IMG/VR virus record: IMGVR_UViG_3300014204_000125
Span: 51,336 to 115,335 of that record
Strand: one strand, 5' to 3'
DNA: 64,000 nucleotides
DNA from: a virus
Taxonomy: Duplodnaviria; Caudoviricetes
Under the pieces are notes generated by a model, which worked only from the letters and a program-made list of their open reading frames with translations, had not been told where the DNA came from and ran no database searches. The translations under genes were made by a program, and so were the position numbers. This document shows positions 7,277 through 37,609 of this stretch, piece after piece. Within the stretch, counting starts at the first letter, position 1; each line of letters starts with the position of its first letter.

Positions 7277-7903
7277 TTATACAACAGTCTTCCAATCCGC
7301 GGCGATGGCGCCCGTGGATCTATAACTCGACACGGCACAGCAATACCCGGAGAAAGCATCGCCCATTCCTTTGGAATCCCCGGAAAACGACATGCAAGCC
7401 GACTTAGATATCCCGATCGATGAACCCGCAATCATCGCGTCCTGATTCGCAGCGAGAAAAACGAACTGCCATTTGTAAACATCCGTCTGGTGAGATATCA
7501 TTTCGAAGACCTGTTCGCGTGTGAATTTTCTGGAAGCGTTTTCTTCCCCGTCGGTGAGGATTGTCACGATGACTTTCTCGGGGCGCTCGTCTTCCTTCAT
7601 AGCCGCAATCCTGGCCCCGATTCGGGTTACGGTTTCCCCGATCGCATCGTAAAGCGCGGTGCCGCCGTTGGGGACATAGGTTTCGGTGTCAAGCCTCTTG
7701 ACTTCACCTACGAGAGCGTTCTCGCATACAATTTTGAGATCCCCATCAAAGGAAAAAAGAACGAGGTCCATCCTGGCTTCCCCGGGTTCTTTCTGCTGGG
7801 CTTCGAGAAAAGTATTGAATCCGCCGATCGCGTCGTTGCGGATGGATTCCATTGATCCTGATTTGTCGATGATAGAAACAATTAAGGTGAGATCTTTTTT
7901 CAT
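7277..7903 (-). CDS. von Willebrand factor A domain protein
   Basis: MIDAS DKSGSM, GGTALYDAIG, ILTDGEENAS. Confidence 0.92.
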   Translation of the reverse strand: MKKDLTLIVSIIDKSGSMESIRNDAIGGFNTFLEAQQKEPGEARMDLVLFSFDGDLKIVCENALVGEVKRLDTETYVPNGGTALYDAIGETVTRIGARIAAMKEDERPEKVIVTILTDGEENASRKFTREQVFEMISHQTDVYKWQFVFLAANQDAMIAGSSIGISKSACMSFSGDSKGMGDAFSGYCCAVSSYRSTGAIAADWKTVV

Positions 7904-8522: not shown

Positions 8523-8747
8523 TCCAATATAAACAAAAATCACCTTCTCCTATCTCGCGGCGTATCCTCGGGCAACACACCCAAAACAATGCGATAAAGA
8601 GAAAGCGATCCCAAAGTTCCATCGGGTCCGAAGGAAACCAACACCGGGTTGATATCCGGCATAACCCTTCGCCTCTTGCAAAACCCCGGGCGAATTTCTT
8701 TCATAGCTTACGAATAAAGTGTACCAGAAATCAATCCAGAAGTAAAC

Positions 8748-8777
8748 AAAAAAAAGTCCTGAATTTCTTCAAGACTT
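8748..8777 (-). terminator. Intrinsic terminator of the ncRNA operon
   Basis: AAGTCTTGAA-GAAA-TTCAGGACTT followed by a T-run on the minus strand. Confidence 0.85.
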
Positions 8778-8795
8778 CTTTTGCCGGGTGTACGC

Positions 8796-9083
8796 CCGAG
8801 GTAGTCGCAGAACCACCTTAAAATATAAGGAGGAGCTAGTCCGGGATGAAGATTTGCGCCTATCCACACTTTGCGCTGTCTCCGTTTTACAAGGGTGGAC
8901 CAAGTTCCCGGATCAAGCCCCTACTCTTTGATATTAAAGACCCCAAGGGAGGGTTCGCGCCTCATCTTCCCGGTGCGGTGGTTATCCCACAATACGAACT
9001 TAATCGGACGCACTTTTTACACCACGCGTGGCGGGTTTGCTCTTTCTTTCAGCCTTGCAAGACCTTTCATTGAGCTACCTCAG
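8796..9083 (-). ncRNA. Unknown ~290 nt structured RNA downstream of tmRNA
   Basis: Closing helix CTGAGGTAG/CTACCTCGG; internal GTGCG/CGCAC, GTGG/CCAC, CCGG-GAAGAT/ATCTTC-CCGG, TCCAC/GTGGA, CCTTA/TAAGG; no minus-strand ORF in the track. Confidence 0.65.
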
Positions 9084-9090
9084 AGAGATT

Positions 9091-9500
9091 TGGTGGAGGT
9101 GTGGGAAATTGCATCCCAGTCCGAAGATCTTTCCCTGTCTTGATTTTTACACGCTTATCCCTTTTACCCGCGGGAAGGGTGTCGGTTTTGAGGCGTTACC
9201 CTGTGTCATGGTAGAACAACCGATGCCCCATGATCCACTTGCGTTAGATTCTTTACGCGGATAACTCCGTTGGCAAGTTCGCAGAGTTTTTACGCGGGCG
9301 TCCCCTTTCGGTTCGGCCGTGGGTTCACAATTAAGCGGCTAACATAACAGGAGCGAGTTCTTTTACGAACAAACCTCTGACAATATTGTCCACCTGATCG
9401 AGAACTGAATTAGTTTTGGCAATTAGTGTTTGTGCATTAAGGAAGCACGCCTTTGCGTGACAAGATAGTTCGTTATCTCCGTCGAAACTAGTTCACCCCC
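9091..9500 (-). ncRNA. ssrA: tmRNA (410 nt)
   Basis: 5' GGGGGTGAACTAGTTTCGAC; 3' GAC-TGGGA-TGCAATT-TCCCA-CACCTCC-ACCA; acceptor stem with G3-U; tag ORF 9420-9331 AKTNSVLDQVDNIVRGLFVKELAPVMLAA*. Confidence 0.95.
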
Positions 9501-9510
9501 GAAATATTTG

Positions 9511-9610
9511 TTGCGGCGCTTCAAGTCTTGGGTGATCATGCCAGACGAGCTTCGGGAGATCCAGAGAAAAGAGGGCCCTCTAATATCCCTTTGGGATTCC
9601 CATACCGCAA
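9511..9610 (-). ncRNA. Unknown ~100 nt structured RNA upstream of tmRNA
   Basis: Closing stem TTGCGGT/GCCGCAA; internal GGGA/TCCC, ATCCC/GGGAT, TAGAG/CTCTG, GTCT-GG/CC-AGAC. Confidence 0.55.
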
Positions 9611-9621
9611 TTAAATTTTAT

Positions 9622-9780
9622 AGGGGAGCCAAATCGAGTTGAATAATTTCTCTGGCGGTACTAAGGTCAAAGGTCATATTCGGTTGGACATGGATCCCCA
9701 TTTTCAAAAAACATATGGATAACCGGCCGGGAACTCAAGTGGATAAATCCCTGGGGCGGGACATTTCTTCTGAGCCCCGA
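9622..9780 (-). ncRNA. Unknown ~160 nt structured RNA, first in the operon
   Basis: GGGGC/GCCCC hairpin, then interrupted stem GGGA..CCA..TGAGTT/AACTCG..TGG..TCCC and CGGTT/AACCG. Confidence 0.45.
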
Positions 9781-9794
9781 ACGATTACATTCCA

Positions 9795-9823
9795 AGTATA
9801 GCATTAATGTTAGATGGTGTCAA
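9795..9823 (-). promoter_or_regulatory. Strong sigma70 promoter of the ncRNA operon
   Basis: TTGACA-N17-TATACT with a TG extension. Confidence 0.85.
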
Positions 9824-12633
9824 GCCTTTTTCTTTTTCATGAACTCAAAGGGCGTCTTCAGCCTTTTCCAGTATTTACTCGTATCCGCGAGTTTGATCTG
9901 GGATTCGTTTTCGAGCCGCATGCCGCCCCAAGTGATCAGGTGCGCCTCGAACATCGCGTTGACTTTATCCTCTATGGTTTTGATCATCGAGAGATCCAGC
10001 ATGTAATACACGGGTTCTTTGCGTGGGTCTTTAGGATTTTCCGGTTTGATCTTAGGAACCTTAACTTTTTTATTGAGAAGTTTATTAAGTCTCGCTGCTT
10101 CCGCCGCATTTTCTTTTTGGGTTCCCATTCTTGCTTTCATAAAGGCTCCTTTTTATTGTTTGGTTTCATCGGATTTGGGGACAGAAAGCTGTCTCTTTTT
10201 TAAGATTTCTTTTACGACTTCCCAGCTCTTAGAGTAATCGTATGGATCTCTCGATTTTGGAACAATCCCCGACATAAATATCGGCGTAAAGAACTGTTTG
10301 CCATAGGGTTCTCCCCACTCCGGTATCGGGTCTTCTTTCTCCGTTGTGAAGTTCTTTATATCCTGAACTTCAGGGTCCGGTTTAATTTCAAGAGCAACAG
10401 GTTTATTATAAACCAGTGGCGCCTGCCTCTTGATCTCGGGTTTGAATAGGTCCAATATTTTTCTAAAAAGTGACATTTGGCTTGCAACCCCCTCTGTCCT
10501 TCCACTCAATACAGCATGCCTGATACTTATTACAGCCCATACAGTTCGTCCTACGCACTGAACTCGGCCCCTTTTTCACAAACTTGTTACACCCTACCCG
10601 ATTCGGCCATGCCGGGGTGTGAGAGATACGACCCTCGATCATGCCAGAGCCTTCCTTAATCTTCCGGCCTTCGATTTCACAGGAATAGGGATCCTTGAGG
10701 CAGTAGTCGCATATGTGGAAATTGGCTTCGTAGAAATCGATTTTCTTTTGCATTCGGGTTGCGGCAAGATATATTTGCTTTGTTTCGAACAGGGTTAATT
10801 TGGACCGGTTCCCTCCCGAACATTCCGCGATATCAAACCATTTTTTGTCAGCATTAATGTACTTTTCCACAACGTCTATTTCGGTGTAAGGTATTGTTTC
10901 TAAAGATTCCATGATTTCACCCTTTCCTCAACGGCTTTCTTAGCAGACTCATAGTCAGCAAAAACTCCCATGTTAATACATCCTCCGGATACCGCTTTCT
11001 GAAACACGGAATACTGAACGGGTTCAGAATAACCCGCTTCAAACCTTACAGGATCAATGGTAAAATGCCAATGCGAGCCTTTCCATTCAACATAGGTCTC
11101 TATCATTTTTCTTTCGTTAAAAACAAGTTCACTCATTGTTCCTCCTACGCCATATAGGTTATTTCTCCGTTTGGGTCTATGACTTGTGGGGTCCAGTCCT
11201 TTTCATTGCAAAGGGTATCTGTGAAAAGAGGGCCCCCATTGAAATGTCCTTTAAAACATCGAAAATTAAGATAACCCACAAATCTATAATTATCACAGTT
11301 AGAACAGCCCTTTTGAAACTCTTTGTCGTTCATATTGGGTTTCATTTCGGGTAGGATTGCTTCAATTTCTGTTTTGAGTTCTTGCAGGCATGTATCGCAG
11401 AACCAAGTCTCTTTGAGGGCAGCGAATCCGACTACACTGACAACCCTCTTAAAGTCTTTGTGACATTGTCCACACTGCCGCATATCCTCATCATGCCACT
11501 TTATAGGGGTTAAGAACTTTTGGTTCATATCTGCTGGTTCCCCCATGTCACTTCGAAAGTAGAATTGTTATGGTCGTGTTTGAACTTTGCTTTGAATCCC
11601 ACACTTTTCAGGAACTCGATATAATCGTTTACGATAGCATTCCCGTATTCGATATGAGAACCCGCGTCTACATGGGCCCAATCGTAACCCTTGAGTGCCT
11701 GAGCTTCTATCTGGGGATGGAATTCTATGATGAACTGGCATCCCATGATCTCGTTTCGAACTTTATCAATCTCTTTATTCCGCTTCCAGAGATCTACACA
11801 CGTATCCGCGGAGAGTTCGTATGTGGAAGCGTCGGATTGCATTTGGGTCTCAAGGGCATGGGCTTTCTGTCTGAGGAGCCCCATTTGAGTTTTTACTTTG
11901 GCGATGAAGGTGTCGATCATATTGCCTCCCAACTTATTTCAATTTCTTTTTCATCGAATCCGCGTGGATTTGGAGTTATTTTGTATCCCAGCCTTTCCAG
12001 TGCCTTAATAACCATATCTTTCAGGGAATAAAAATGAGGAAATTTATAAATCGTTTTCATTTCGTTCCGAAGTGCGGCTTTAAGAATTTCTTGGATTGCC
12101 CACCAGTATTCCCTACTTTGTTCCCCGATAGCGAGTTCCTTCATGTACTTGGCTTTCATTTTTACCTCCGGTTTCTCAGATCGTCTATTTTGTTTTCTAT
12201 AATTACGAGCTGGGATAGGATCGCAAGAGCCAAAGCGAAGCCAGCGGCTATGGGTTCCCTTGAATTTAAGTAGAAAGCCAGAACGATCAATACGAGTAAG
12301 CCGAATCTAAGTCTAAAATTGAATTTCATTTTATTTTCCACTCCAATCGATATCGATAACGACATCGGAATCTCCGGTTTCGTCTACGGAGTAAGAGAAA
12401 CCTCTTTTGAGAAGGCTTTGGATTTTAGAAACAATGTCTGATCCGAAACTTTCTTTGTCGATTAAGATACGGCAGTTGGTCTTTCCGAGCCGGGTGTACA
12501 TTGCAATCCTGTTTTCGATACGATTACAAACGGCCCTGGCTAAATCACGCTCTATCAATGCCGAGGTCTCCATAGCAATTTGTTTATATTCCTCGGCCGT
12601 GGGTTGTCTCCAGAACTTCCACCACATATCCAT
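9820..12633 (-). other. Operon of small hypothetical phage genes (9820-10140, 10153-10509, 10463-10912, 10900-11136, 11145-11546, 11525-11932, 11917-12159, 12162-12365, 12331-12633)
   Basis: Head-to-tail overlapping ORFs with GGAGG-type RBSs; several Cys-rich, one 2-TM. Confidence 0.7.
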
Positions 12634-12691: not shown

Positions 12692-13909
12692 TTCTTTTCT
12701 TTGGAAAGTAAAAAAAAAAAATATTTCAGTAACCCTATTCCAAAACTCGGAGCAATAAGGATTGTATTCTCTATAGTCAGAGATAAGATAGTCTATAGTC
12801 TTATACTGTACTCTGATATTGGATCACTATGATTGACAGGATAAGAGATATCTTGAACTAGTATGTATTAGAGTTCAGTAGTTATAAACAGCAAGTTTGA
12901 TTACTTATAACGCTCGCGTATGGTGATCTGTATAGCGATATACGTTGTATTACTATGTACAGTATTAGAGTAGTGCAAGTGTATACTCGCAATAACATAA
13001 GACAGAGTTATATACACTGGGATACTGAGTATATAACCCCGTCTTGCACACACGCGGTCTATATCAGTATAAGCGATGGGTGTGGGGGCGACCAAATTAT
13101 TGCTTCGAGGCCCCCTCATTCCAACCGCCCCTACCGGGCGGCGGGGGGCAGCCCGCAGGGCGTTGCCCCAATAGCCGCACAGGAGAATACCTGTATTCTA
13201 TTTTATATTTATTCTATACAAAATAAGATAATATTATATCTATTCTACTCTGTATAAATATAATGCTATGTTATTTCTATGTTATGCAAGTATGGTATAT
13301 ACGAGTTATGAGTAACACATAGAATAACGAGTTACACTTTTACTACTAGCCACGCGCATATATGGGCACGCATGCGCGACTGTTGATTTTAAGTCATATA
13401 TCTAATTTATTCAGAGATAGAATAAGAAATTCTTGCTGCTTTCTTGGAATTAAAGAACTGGGGTTCCCGGGGTTACGAGGAACCCCTGGATCTCAAAGGT
13501 ACCATAGAAATTTTGAATAGAAACCTCATACCCGGTATTAGGATACCCCGGATTCAAAAAAACTGGGTTTCCTTGAAGATTTGAGGTATTTCTGGTTATG
13601 CTGGGGTTACTGGGTGGTTACGCTTTGGTTATAAACAGAAAATGTGTAGGGAAATCCAACACATTTACAATAATTAGTTTACATAACTGGGATAAAAAGT
13701 GTGGGATAACCCAACACTATACTGATAACGCGCATAAATAGCCTATTAGCGCGTATATAAAAAATGGCATGTTTCCATGCTATGCAAATTCTGCATGGTA
13801 CCACGCAATTTTTTCGCTGTAGTTAAAAAGTTACACCCTGCTATCGAGCAGGATACGAAATTTATGCATACCTGATTTATTTTTAATCTGCTTTTATTCG
13901 ATTTCAGAA

Positions 13910-14077
13910 TGAGCCAGATTGGGTTGATATCTTTTCCCTTTTTACTCTTTTATTTGATTTTGGATTGAGCCAGATTACGCGAGTACGATAGCGATAAATT
14001 CTCCCCCCATTCTCTTTCCTGAATCATCTGACCAGAAAAAACAATGAGCCAGAGGATTTAGGTATGATAGCGATAAA
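13910..14077. repeat. TGAGCCAGA x3 and GATAGCGATAAA x2 direct repeats
   Basis: TGAGCCAGA at 13910, 13966 and 14045; GATAGCGATAAA near 13988 and 14066. Confidence 0.8.
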
Positions 14078-14449
14078 AATCTGCCACACCACATCTGATT
14101 CAATACAAACCCCCCTCGCGCAGCGCGAGATATAATATGGCGCTGCCGATGATAGCATCGTAACATCAAGTGTAACACGTTACAAGTAAATCGTAACATT
14201 ATCACATTCTGGTAACACGTATACACAATCTGTTCTACTGCGTATTACTCTAAGCCAGTATATTGATATATTATTCAAGTGTAACATTACCTTCATTAAA
14301 AATTGCAAGCGCCCCGGAAAACATCATACCATAACATCAGGTATCAAGTATCAATTCTATCAAGCGCCTCTGTCAATTAGTGGTGTATAACATCATGTTA
14401 TAACGCGCCGGGTTAATAACGCTTATATAACATGATATTTCCGAAAACC

Positions 14450-14632
14450 TGAACGCTTGTTCAGAAGAAAATCGAAAACACTTGTTTTCATTAGTGTTAT
14501 AAGAACATTTTTGAACACGTGTTCAAATTATAATGAACGCTTGTTCATTTTACTGGTATGTAATATGCTATTTACCAGTGTTATCACGTTTTATAATGAA
14601 CGCTTGTTCAGTAAATTATGAACGCTTGTTCA
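14450..14632. repeat. Five TGAAC-N4-GTTCA palindromes
   Basis: TGAACGCTTGTTCA at 14450, 14534, 14597 and 14619; TGAACACGTGTTCA at 14512. Confidence 0.9.
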
Positions 14633-14675
14633 TTTTAGAATGTTAGCGCGTGATAACCTGATAAAAAATGCATTA

Positions 14676-14710
14676 TGCACTATAATAGTGCAATGCACTA
14701 AACAAGTGCA
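14676..14710. repeat. Tandem TGCACT-N5-AGTGCA palindromes
   Basis: 14676-14692 and 14694-14710. Confidence 0.85.
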
Positions 14711-15189
14711 TATCAAAAAAAACATCATATCGAAAAAAATCAATTCAATATTTCAAAGTATCAAACTAAAAAAAACTTATCAAGTATCAAGTTAAAAACA
14801 TAAAACCGCTTAAAACTCGTTTTAAAGTATCAAATTGGAAAACTCTAACATAACTAACACATAAGTATCAAACTTTAAAACCTCGTGTAAATCGTATATT
14901 CGATATATTTAATATTGCACTAAAACATCAATAAAATTAATACTTTTACTTATCCGCGACAATTTCCATACCAACATATCATATATACAGTATAGTATAG
15001 TAATACTAACATTAAAAACTTGCAATAAAACCGCTTGCAATATAGCATTGTATCATAATGGTATTATCCATTGAATTTTAATGTTATCCGTTATAGTGTC
15101 AAGTATTATCTTGATATTTTTTATATCCTGAAAACTATAATAAACAATGCTATTATCACAATATTCTTAAAACTATTTTTCTAACACGC

Positions 15190-15218
15190 TTGTTATTACT
15201 TAAAAACTATGTTATAAT
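15190..15218 (+). promoter_or_regulatory. sigma70-type early promoter
   Basis: TTGTTA-N17-TATAAT with a TG extension. Confidence 0.6.
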
Positions 15219-15359
15219 AAGAGTATAAAACAAATTTGAAATGAATTGTAAATCGCTTTTTAAAAACTTATCACATATTCAAGAGCACTTGAATATATCT
15301 TATCAAGTATCAAGTGGTATCTTAAATCACGTTTGATACTTCAAAGTAAAATTCTATTT

Positions 15360-15388
15360 TTGCCGTTTTCAGGAAAAACGAGTATAAT
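15360..15388 (+). promoter_or_regulatory. sigma70-type early promoter
   Basis: TTGCCG-N17-TATAAT directly upstream of the RBS AAGGA. Confidence 0.65.
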
Positions 15389-15407
15389 TTTAAAGGAATG
15401 ATTTAAA

Positions 15408-16253: not shown

Positions 16254-16366
16254 CTTGATACCATGTATCAAGACCCGGATAAGATCCGATAAAACGATTA
16301 ACACGTTAAAACGGCCCTTTATAAGACCTATTAAGACCGTTTTAAAACTTGATATCATGTATCAAG
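16254..16366. repeat. Two CTTGATA-N5-TATCAAG palindromes
   Basis: 16254-16272 and 16348-16366; same half-site as the AAGTATCAA repeats. Confidence 0.8.
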
Positions 16367-16649
16367 ACAATGCTAACAAGCATTACCCGGAGTAAGTATT
16401 ATAGTTTTGTATATTGTCTTTATACGCCCTTATCCGGCGTATTATCCGAAAAAAAACGGATAGAATTTTAGCGCGATTAATCCGAAAAATTTTAACAAGT
16501 TTTGAAAATCATGTAAACCTTGACAGAAAACGGATTGACACGAAAAATTGATATCTTGTAAAAAGTTTTGAAACGTCTGAAAAATTTACGAAAAAAACTT
16601 TTTGCGATAAGATAGAATAAAATTTTTTAAGATAATACGGATATTAGAA

Positions 16650-17137
16650 CGAAAAATCGACGCTTTATGACCGTCGATAGTTTTCGCGTTGCTCACGAAA
16701 CGAGCCACGGCCAGTAGTAGTGTTACTTTGATAACATAGGCCGCGTGTTCTCCTGCATGACCCAAAGCGATATTGGTTTAGTGATAGACCATACCTCGCG
16801 GGAACAAAAACATAAGCATTGCAGGCGAGTTGATTCCCCTATGGAGTGCGCTTAATTCAGGCTGGAATCGGGAAGTCCTCTTTAAGACGGAGGCAAAGAC
16901 GGGTAAAAACGATAGGCCGCGCTCACTATGTCCAAATGGGACGGCGCTCTTGAGTGTAAACATTCAAGACCTATCACTATATAGATCCGAAGATCGGGAG
17001 GAAATTGTATCCCTTGGATCGAGTATAGCCCTGAACACTACATGACAATAGGTCGGGGGCGCTGCGGTTTAGCGAACGGGCGTCCCTGGCTGCCTAAACA
17101 CGAGACGGTCTATCAGAAATGGTAGGCCGTCTTTTTT
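16650..17137 (+). ncRNA. Candidate large structured RNA/leader (~480 nt)
   Basis: GC-richer segment with at least 9 stems, e.g. ATCGACG/CGTCGAT, TGGTTTA-GTGA-TAGACCA, CTGCA/TGCAG, GATTCC/GGAATC, GATAGG/CCTATC, TCTTGAGTG/CATTCAAGA, GATCCGA/TTGGATC, GGGGCGCT/GGCGTCCC. Confidence 0.65.
17103..17137 (+). terminator. Intrinsic terminator
   Basis: AGACGGTCTATCA-GAAA-TGGTAGGCCGTCT-TTTTT. Confidence 0.9.
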
Positions 17138-36403: not shown

Positions 36404-37609
36404 ATGATAGGAGTCGATACGGGCCATAAAACTCCCATAAAGATATGGGTGTCGAATATTGAAGAGGGCGCATTGAATCAGGCATATAATCTAGCAGATC
36501 TTCCTTTTGTTTTTAAACATATCGCCCTTATGCCTGATTCCCATCAGGGTTATGGGATGCCCATAGGTGGCGTGCTTGCAACCAAAGGTATAATAATCCC
36601 AAACGCTGTCGGAGTAGATATTTCTTGTGGCGTAGCCTGTATCAAAACAAGCCTTAAAACAGAAACAACTTCGATTGAGCAAATTAAGGAACTCATGGGC
36701 TTTATCCGAAAAGCTATCCCTCTCGGACATAACCATCACAGCGAAGCAAAAATATCCGAAATGGAATTTTATTGCGGGCCAAAGGATTCAATAAATAAAG
36801 ATAAATATCCTATTTTCTATCAGGAATACAATTCGGCAACTCACCAGATAGGCACGCTCGGCGGAGGAAATCACTTTATAGAAATCCAAAAAGACCCGGA
36901 AGGGTTTATATGGGTCATGATTCACTCCGGTTCCCGCAATATTGGAAAAAAGGTAGCAGACCATTACAATGAAAGAGCAAAAAACGAAAACTGGAGATGG
37001 TTCTCTTCGGTCCCTAAAGAGGTAGATCTTGCATTTCTTCCTCTCGAATCGGAGATTGGACTTCAGTATTTTAAAGAACAACAAATGTGCGGCACGTTCG
37101 CGAAAGCAAACAGGGAAGTAATGTTATCTTCCATTATGGCAATAATAAAAAATATGTTCCCTGAATGCGAATTTCTTCCTATCGTATATGAAAATCCGAT
37201 ATTTGACATCGCTCATAACTATGCCGACATCGAGAACCACTTCGGCGTCAATGTAATTGTACATCGCAAGGGAGCCACGAGAGCATATGAAGGCCAACTT
37301 GGGATAATCCCGGGAAGCCAAGGCACAAAATCATATATAGTGAGAGGGCTCGGCAACCCCGACTCATTCAAGTCGTGTTCTCACGGCGCCGGCCGTAAGA
37401 TGGGCCGCAAGGTAGCGCAGCAAAGCCTTAATCTTCAGGATGAAATAGATCGAATGAATTCGCAAGGAATCGTTCACAGTATTCGTTCGGCAAAAGATCT
37501 TGACGAGGCCGCGGGGGCTTACAAGGACATAGACGAAGTAATGGAAAACCAGAAAGACCTCGTTGAAATCGTAACCGAACTTAAACCAATCGCAGTTATA
37601 AAAGCATAG
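36404..37609 (+). CDS. rtcB: RNA 3'-phosphate/2',3'-cyclic phosphate ligase RtcB
   Basis: MPDSHQGYGMPIG, VGVDISCG, GTLGGGNHFIE, IHSGSR, HNY, HRKGA, PGSQG, SHGAGR, YKDI. Confidence 0.97.
   Translation: MIGVDTGHKTPIKIWVSNIEEGALNQAYNLADLPFVFKHIALMPDSHQGYGMPIGGVLATKGIIIPNAVGVDISCGVACIKTSLKTETTSIEQIKELMGFIRKAIPLGHNHHSEAKISEMEFYCGPKDSINKDKYPIFYQEYNSATHQIGTLGGGNHFIEIQKDPEGFIWVMIHSGSRNIGKKVADHYNERAKNENWRWFSSVPKEVDLAFLPLESEIGLQYFKEQQMCGTFAKANREVMLSSIMAIIKNMFPECEFLPIVYENPIFDIAHNYADIENHFGVNVIVHRKGATRAYEGQLGIIPGSQGTKSYIVRGLGNPDSFKSCSHGAGRKMGRKVAQQSLNLQDEIDRMNSQGIVHSIRSAKDLDEAAGAYKDIDEVMENQKDLVEIVTELKPIAVIKA

Follow-up and report, generated by a model that had tools for sequence, protein, structure and literature searches.

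The locus described here lies on the minus strand of the window (the whole 64 kb of DNA that was analysed, which is the right-hand part of a 115,335 bp uncultured IMG/VR phage record with direct terminal repeats). It consists of a phage tmRNA gene, itself of a known kind, set between unusually long flanks that are not tRNAs. The tmRNA gene stands in its own strong early transcription unit, and this is the secure part of the analysis. We tentatively favour the reading in which the gene is transcribed with an unusually long, probably folded leader (~290 nt) and trailer (~300 nt plus the terminator). A preliminary description of the same DNA had read the flanks as three further structured RNAs, co-transcribed with the tmRNA and separated from it by short linkers. 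Its observations are largely correct; its three-RNA interpretation exceeds the evidence.

The unit is bracketed, as had been described, by a sigma-70 type promoter and a clean intrinsic terminator (Table 1). Transcription is predicted to start near 9788 and to yield a transcript of ~1040 nt. Only three sites as good as this promoter occur in the first 20 kb, all of them on the minus strand and all driving the leftward arm. The -35 box contains the stop codon of the 106-aa ORF upstream, and a weak second promoter-like site (9670-9643, 9/12) lies inside hairpin A2. The longest ORF that the minus strand offers between promoter and terminator has 53 aa, and each of the six frames contains all three stop codons, so that no simple recoding opens a frame. 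Ten short ORFs from both strands of the unit returned no match in Pfam or PHROGs. The absence of a minus-strand protein gene is thereby upheld, as is the view of the locus as a single non-coding promoter-to-terminator unit with a phage tmRNA and no tRNA neighbours; ARAGORN finds no tRNA gene in the whole phage genome.

Table 1. Features of the tmRNA transcription unit and the ORFs on either side (positions in the window).
Feature	Position	Strand	Description
Upstream flanking ORF	9820..10140	-	106 aa; called protein in the 5.8-billion-protein collection
Promoter, sigma-70 type	9823-9795	-	TTGACA-17-TATACT with TG extension; 11/12 matches
Unit A	9780-9622	-	Minimum-energy fold is two hairpins, A1 and A2; not self-closing
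Hairpin A1	9780-9728	-	53 nt; predicted fold; ~9 nt from the predicted transcript 5' end
Hairpin A2	9700-9622	-	79 nt; predicted fold, long and irregular
Linker A-B	9611..9621	-	AUAAAAUUUAA; 100% A+U; mean unpaired probability 0.58
Unit B	9610-9511	-	100 nt; 53% G+C; predicted three-way junction with 6-7 bp closing stem
tmRNA, one-piece, full-length	9500-9091	-	RF00023; 92.1 bits against a gathering cut-off of 47; model 1-374
tmRNA tag frame	9420-9331	-	AKTNSVLDQVDNIVRGLFVKELAPVMLAA, then stop; resume codon placed from the Rfam alignment
Unit D	9083-8796	-	288 nt; 51% G+C; predicted multibranch fold with 9-bp closing stem CUGAGGUAG/CUACCUCGG
Intrinsic terminator	8782-8749	-	15-bp stem, GAAA loop, U run; strong/good
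First downstream ORF	8540..8704	-	54 aa; own promoter-like site in front; marks the end of the RNA unit

That the flanks encode small proteins is very improbable. There are two candidates. Just past the tmRNA, an AUG at 9070 opens a 17-codon frame (MKGLARLKERANPPRVV; window 9019-9082) with GAGGU 6 nt upstream, and an antisense ORF of 75 aa (8846-9073, plus strand) lies inside unit D, in a region where plus-strand ORFs of 75-101 aa occur. The GAGG of the candidate Shine-Dalgarno sequence, however, falls within the predicted closing stem of D, and we estimate that one such pair of Shine-Dalgarno sequence and AUG would appear in 600 nt with ~20% probability by chance. The short frame is within what chance provides, and could be a micro-ORF or a chance occurrence. 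The 75-aa ORF, for its part, has no homologue and is absent as a called protein from a collection of 5.8 billion proteins; no ORF of the unit matches a family, and the neighbouring genes all lie on the minus strand.

The tmRNA itself was placed by its covariance model at exactly the position first proposed for it. Its acceptor stem, GGGGGUG/CACCUCC, contains the G3-U70 alanine identity pair and is followed by an encoded ACCA. The tag frame comprises 29 codons, has no start codon and ends in VMLAA before the stop; ARAGORN at relaxed thresholds proposes another tag frame. With default settings ARAGORN missed the gene altogether, detecting it only at relaxed 80% thresholds. This is likely explained by the T-loop, which lacks the canonical form (UUCGAAU type) and reads UGCAAUU. 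The same loop recurs in bacteria, in 39 genomes that are mostly from Candidatus Omnitrophota, which marks it as natural variation and not as damage.

A pattern search with this T-arm retrieved 39 loci in bacteria and 77 in viruses. Those from bacteria (L206-L244) are mostly Candidatus Omnitrophota (at least 17 of the 39), with a few from Elusimicrobia, and alignment with the T-arm-variant loci is confined to the tRNA-like ends of the tmRNA. The tRNA-like domain (9481-9500 and 9091-9113) consists of a 5' part GGGGGUGAA, the UGCAAUU T-loop and a 3' part CACCUCCACCA. Its resemblance to the Omnitrophota type may hint, weakly, at the host of a phage that cannot otherwise be placed. No SmpB is encoded in the phage genome, so that the tmRNA would work with the SmpB of the host.

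The flanks differ in composition from the rest of the non-coding genome. Leader and trailer have 46.5% and 51.6% G+C against a genome mean of 44.7%, and in the ten remaining ORF-free gaps of 400 nt or more it ranges from 27.7 to 45.1%, always below both flanks; the trailer has the highest G+C of the genome's non-coding stretches. Within the units, moreover, G versus C and A versus U are nearer to balance than in the neighbouring genes, where A is abundant and C or U is scarce. Such balance is what helices require, and it indicates, indirectly, that the flanks are not plain spacer.

Structural prediction gives a more mixed picture. Where the flanks had been divided into self-closing units, B and D do close in their predicted folds, while A forms two separate hairpins. 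The centroid of B is identical to its minimum-energy fold, whereas that of D, which starts 7 nt past the CCA of the tmRNA, departs from it in the middle. Against dinucleotide-preserving shuffles, the fold energies of B (z -0.60 to -0.68) and D (z -0.73 to -1.03) are ordinary for their composition. Hairpins A1 (z -2.65 sense, -1.09 antisense) and A2 (z -2.92 sense, -3.10 antisense) score better in the same test, with borders that were picked after folding. Four coding controls span -1.06 to +0.73, and the test has little power here, because the tmRNA, which is certainly real, reaches only -1.02. We roughly estimate a chance of ~5% that the 9-bp stem closing D would arise at those borders by accident. 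On our reading of the folds, the predicted helices of A, B and D contain no GNRA or UNCG loops.

The AU-rich linkers were found as described: besides the linker between A and B, these are CAAAUAUUUC (80% A+U) and AAUCUCU (57% A+U), and across the ensemble their unpaired probabilities of 0.54-0.68 make them moderately unpaired. The proposal that G-U pairs favour the minus strand was not borne out, sense and antisense folds being about equally stable. A duplex between leader and trailer, of the kind that would serve as an RNase III-type processing stem, did not rise above shuffles (20/200), the longest complementary pair being 15 nt at 80%. Positions 9744-9732 of A1 are complementary to the pseudoknot region of the tmRNA (9245-9233) in 12 of 13 positions. 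This is a possible contact between leader and tmRNA, and is near chance expectation at an estimated 0.07 to 0.4 such pairs in the region. The flanks contain no tmRNA-style tag templates.

Known RNA families were sought with Rfam 15 in the whole window and in the locus. Each unit was also scanned by itself, with an E<=10 limit and the most permissive filters. This unit-by-unit comparison, suggested in the preliminary description, identified the tmRNA as RF00023 and left A, B and D without any family match. The covariance models also bore out the earlier reading that the locus contains no RNase P or SRP consensus. For D, neither RF00010 nor the other RNase P families matched, in the phage genome or in D alone at E<=10, and the RNase P model found nothing in 13 related phages. 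One stretch of D, AGAGCAAACCCGCC, has a short AGAGCAAACC-GCC resemblance to E. coli M1 RNA (RNase P RNA), a mere lead that was abandoned in view of these negative scans. SRP, 6S, Y RNA (YrlA), HEARO, OLE, self-cleaving ribozymes and CRISPR repeats gave only chance-level covariance-model scores, and GOLLD (RF01998) and ROOL (RF03087) went unmatched even at E<=10. Weak hits to tmRNA_permuted (24.8 and 16.5 bits, unstable between scans) and alpha_tmRNA (15.8 bits, 7.5 on re-scan) are at chance level and far below threshold; a weak match to BjrC68 is likewise at chance level.

Transfer RNAs were considered with particular reference to the origin of the flanks. These might be decayed former RNA genes, for instance a tRNA array, or DNA captured along with the tmRNA and functionless now. 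Phage tmRNAs are often found among tRNAs, as in the distantly related phage L023, and this genome retains none. Moreover, the 5' end of D (UAGCUCAAUG, following a 7-nt acceptor-like stretch, 7-8 nt past the CCA) bears a likeness to the start of a tRNA. Neither the tRNA model (RF00005, E<=10) nor ARAGORN (at 80-85% thresholds, or with introns allowed) detects a tRNA, intact or decayed, in A, B or D, however. Drift should have brought such remnants towards the AT-rich composition of the genome's non-coding DNA, yet the flanks are G+C-enriched, and nothing similar to them flanks the bacterial ssrA genes that share this type of tRNA-like domain. Decay or capture is therefore an improbable origin.

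Relatives of the flanks were sought in several collections. Searches with blastn found A, B and D in no cultured phage. Near the locus the sole widely shared gene encodes a 208-aa protein (window 7277-7903; PHROG 7371, function unknown), which recurs, at 39-58% identity, on over 100 contigs from metagenomes and viruses. It led us to 18 viral and 80 metagenome loci (best identity 58%), and none of these contains A, B or D; BLAST against the whole records of the 18 phages was equally negative. A tmRNA is carried by five of these 18 distantly related phage records, in genes that abut ORFs or tRNAs and have much shorter flanks. These five phages show no similarity to A, B or D, so that the flanks are lineage-specific and not a conserved set of partners. 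No relative of A, B or D was found at the 77 viral and 39 bacterial T-arm-variant loci, nor by BLAST in 5 + 301 genomes from the same phylum as the Omnitrophota MAG G019. A search of 47 phage records with a covariance model for B gave no hit, and two scans with exact and gapped DNA patterns from D retrieved nothing either. The phage genome itself has no repeats or paralogues of the three units. The homologues beside ssrA in related phages to which the preliminary description had looked were thus not found for any of A, B or D.

With no Rfam match, no homologue and, for B and D, folding energies like those of shuffled sequence, the three further structured RNAs are not established, and the analysis gave no support to their excision as an array or to an action on translation or as decoys. 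It is possible, though less likely than not, that at least one of A, B and D is an independent and stable trans-acting RNA of an undescribed family, which would be released by RNase E or RNase P cuts at the linkers and would have host translation, RNA-targeting defences or host proteins as its target. The very strong promoter, the modular layout with AU-rich linkers, the self-closing predicted folds of B and D and the complementarity of A1 to the tmRNA are all compatible with this reading. The amount of sequence invested and its G+C enrichment, highest in the trailer, keep it alive. Spacers of stable-RNA operons can serve as RNA sponges, as 3'ETS-leuZ does in E. coli. These points must be set against the absence of Rfam matches at E<=10 and of homologues in every collection searched, the ordinary z-scores of B and D, the lack of GNRA or UNCG loops in the predicted helices and the near-chance expectation of the A1 complementarity.

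The fuller version of this idea is doubtful. In it, A1/A2, B and D would all be new stable RNAs, expressed from one very strong early promoter, cut apart at the linkers and acting together with the tmRNA, either retuning host ribosome rescue or soaking up host RNA-binding or RNA-cleaving factors; the locus would then be a tmRNA-centred RNA operon without tRNA partners. Cooperation with the phage RtcB, which had also been suggested, found no support, and the missing link weighs against trans-acting flank RNAs in general. The RtcB is genuine (373 bits; window 36404-37609, plus strand), but it lies 27 kb from the tmRNA locus on the opposite strand, among replication genes (RecT, DnaB, DnaE, clamp, primase), and nothing ties it to the locus. 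No Ro60/TROVE protein is encoded in the phage genome.

We therefore return to the reading favoured here, a tmRNA gene with long leader and trailer, for which we count the promoter, the terminator, the tmRNA itself, the absence of ORFs and of SmpB, the G+C enrichment and base balance of the flanks, the moderately unpaired linkers, the better-than-shuffled folds of A1 and A2, and the lack of A, B and D beside the tmRNAs of the five distantly related phages. Under this model, host RNA polymerase would transcribe the gene early. By the usual course of tmRNA maturation, the ~1040-nt primary transcript would be cut by host RNase P at G9500, freeing the leader, and cut or trimmed at the CCA (9091), freeing the trailer with the terminator hairpin; the mature tmRNA would then partner host SmpB. 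The flanks, G+C-enriched and with G approximately equal to C, would fold into hairpin modules joined by the AU-rich linkers. Their main role would be in cis, presenting the ends of the tmRNA for processing and giving a compact untranslated transcript that escapes Rho and RNases, and the excised pieces may persist as by-products. Against this, a phage with a compact genome would be devoting 600 bases to cis functions alone, which is a great deal, and shuffled sequence folds as stably as B and D do. In the E. coli ssrA precursor and other known pre-tmRNAs the flanks are far shorter.

Phage tmRNAs are known but poorly understood, and nearly all of those described are single genes or members of tRNA arrays. 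One-piece tmRNA genes are encoded by the mycobacteriophage Bxz1 group and by Bacillus phage G (PMC4131195). Like these, and like the tmRNAs of the distantly related IMG/VR phages L020-L024, the present one is full-length, with a tRNA-like domain, a G3-U70 pair, an encoded CCA and a tag ending in AA, and it belongs to a phage without an SmpB of its own. Those genes have ORFs close on either side or belong to tRNA clusters, whereas here the gene has its own promoter-terminator unit in a genome with no tRNA, and ~290 nt on each side are free of ORFs. The UGCAAUU T-loop, in place of the usual UUCGAAU, and the long tag of 29 residues also set it apart.

Parallels to the arrangement can also be drawn outside phage tmRNAs. 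A bacterial ssrA precursor is processed by RNase P at its 5' end and by an endonuclease plus RNase T/PH trimming at its 3' end. By analogy, the phage unit resembles such a precursor in having a single promoter, a leader that would be cut off at G1 and a trailer that extends as far as an intrinsic terminator; its leader and trailer, however, are several times longer and are G+C-enriched. The 3'ETS-leuZ of the E. coli glyW-cysT-leuZ operon suggests how pieces of a tRNA-type precursor could persist and act in trans, but here there is no target, Hfq evidence or conservation, and the comparison is an analogy only. GOLLD (RF01998) and ROOL (RF03087) are likewise ORF-free, G+C-enriched phage RNAs beside a tRNA-type gene, although the units here measure 100-290 nt against their 580-800 nt and match neither model.

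The phage devotes 1 kb of DNA, together with an early promoter that is among its strongest, to a tmRNA and 600 nt of protein-free, G+C-enriched sequence. Such an investment in the absence of any tRNA suggests either an unusual maturation of the pre-tmRNA or extra small RNAs. Should the flanks turn out to be stable RNAs, new families would be at hand whose connection with ribosome rescue in infected cells could be tested. The solid result is more modest, and consists of a divergent phage tmRNA that ARAGORN misses at its defaults and that has an Omnitrophota-type tRNA-like domain.

The upstream 106-aa ORF has no homologue among the 5.8 billion proteins searched. Genes neighbouring the RNA unit all lie on the minus strand, and the replication arm extends from 28666 to 54533 of the window, encoding a DnaE-type Pol III alpha (1207 aa), a beta-clamp-like protein, DnaB and a DnaG-type primase, as well as RecT, a PD-(D/E)XK nuclease, a DEAD helicase and RtcB. 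To judge from the DnaE sequence, which has at most 32% identity to cultured phages and no IMG/VR relative by peptide words, the phage is an orphan lineage without a close relative. A second ORF-free stretch (window 16359-17133) without an Rfam match at gathering thresholds heads the rightward arm and has a 14-bp terminator at its end (17102-17133, plus strand). At the point of divergence between leftward and rightward arms, a 2.1-kb AT-rich gap free of ORFs (window 13258-15407; 28-37% G+C) contains several strong promoter-like sites on both strands (e.g. 15102-15075, 11/12), and is probably an early control or origin region.
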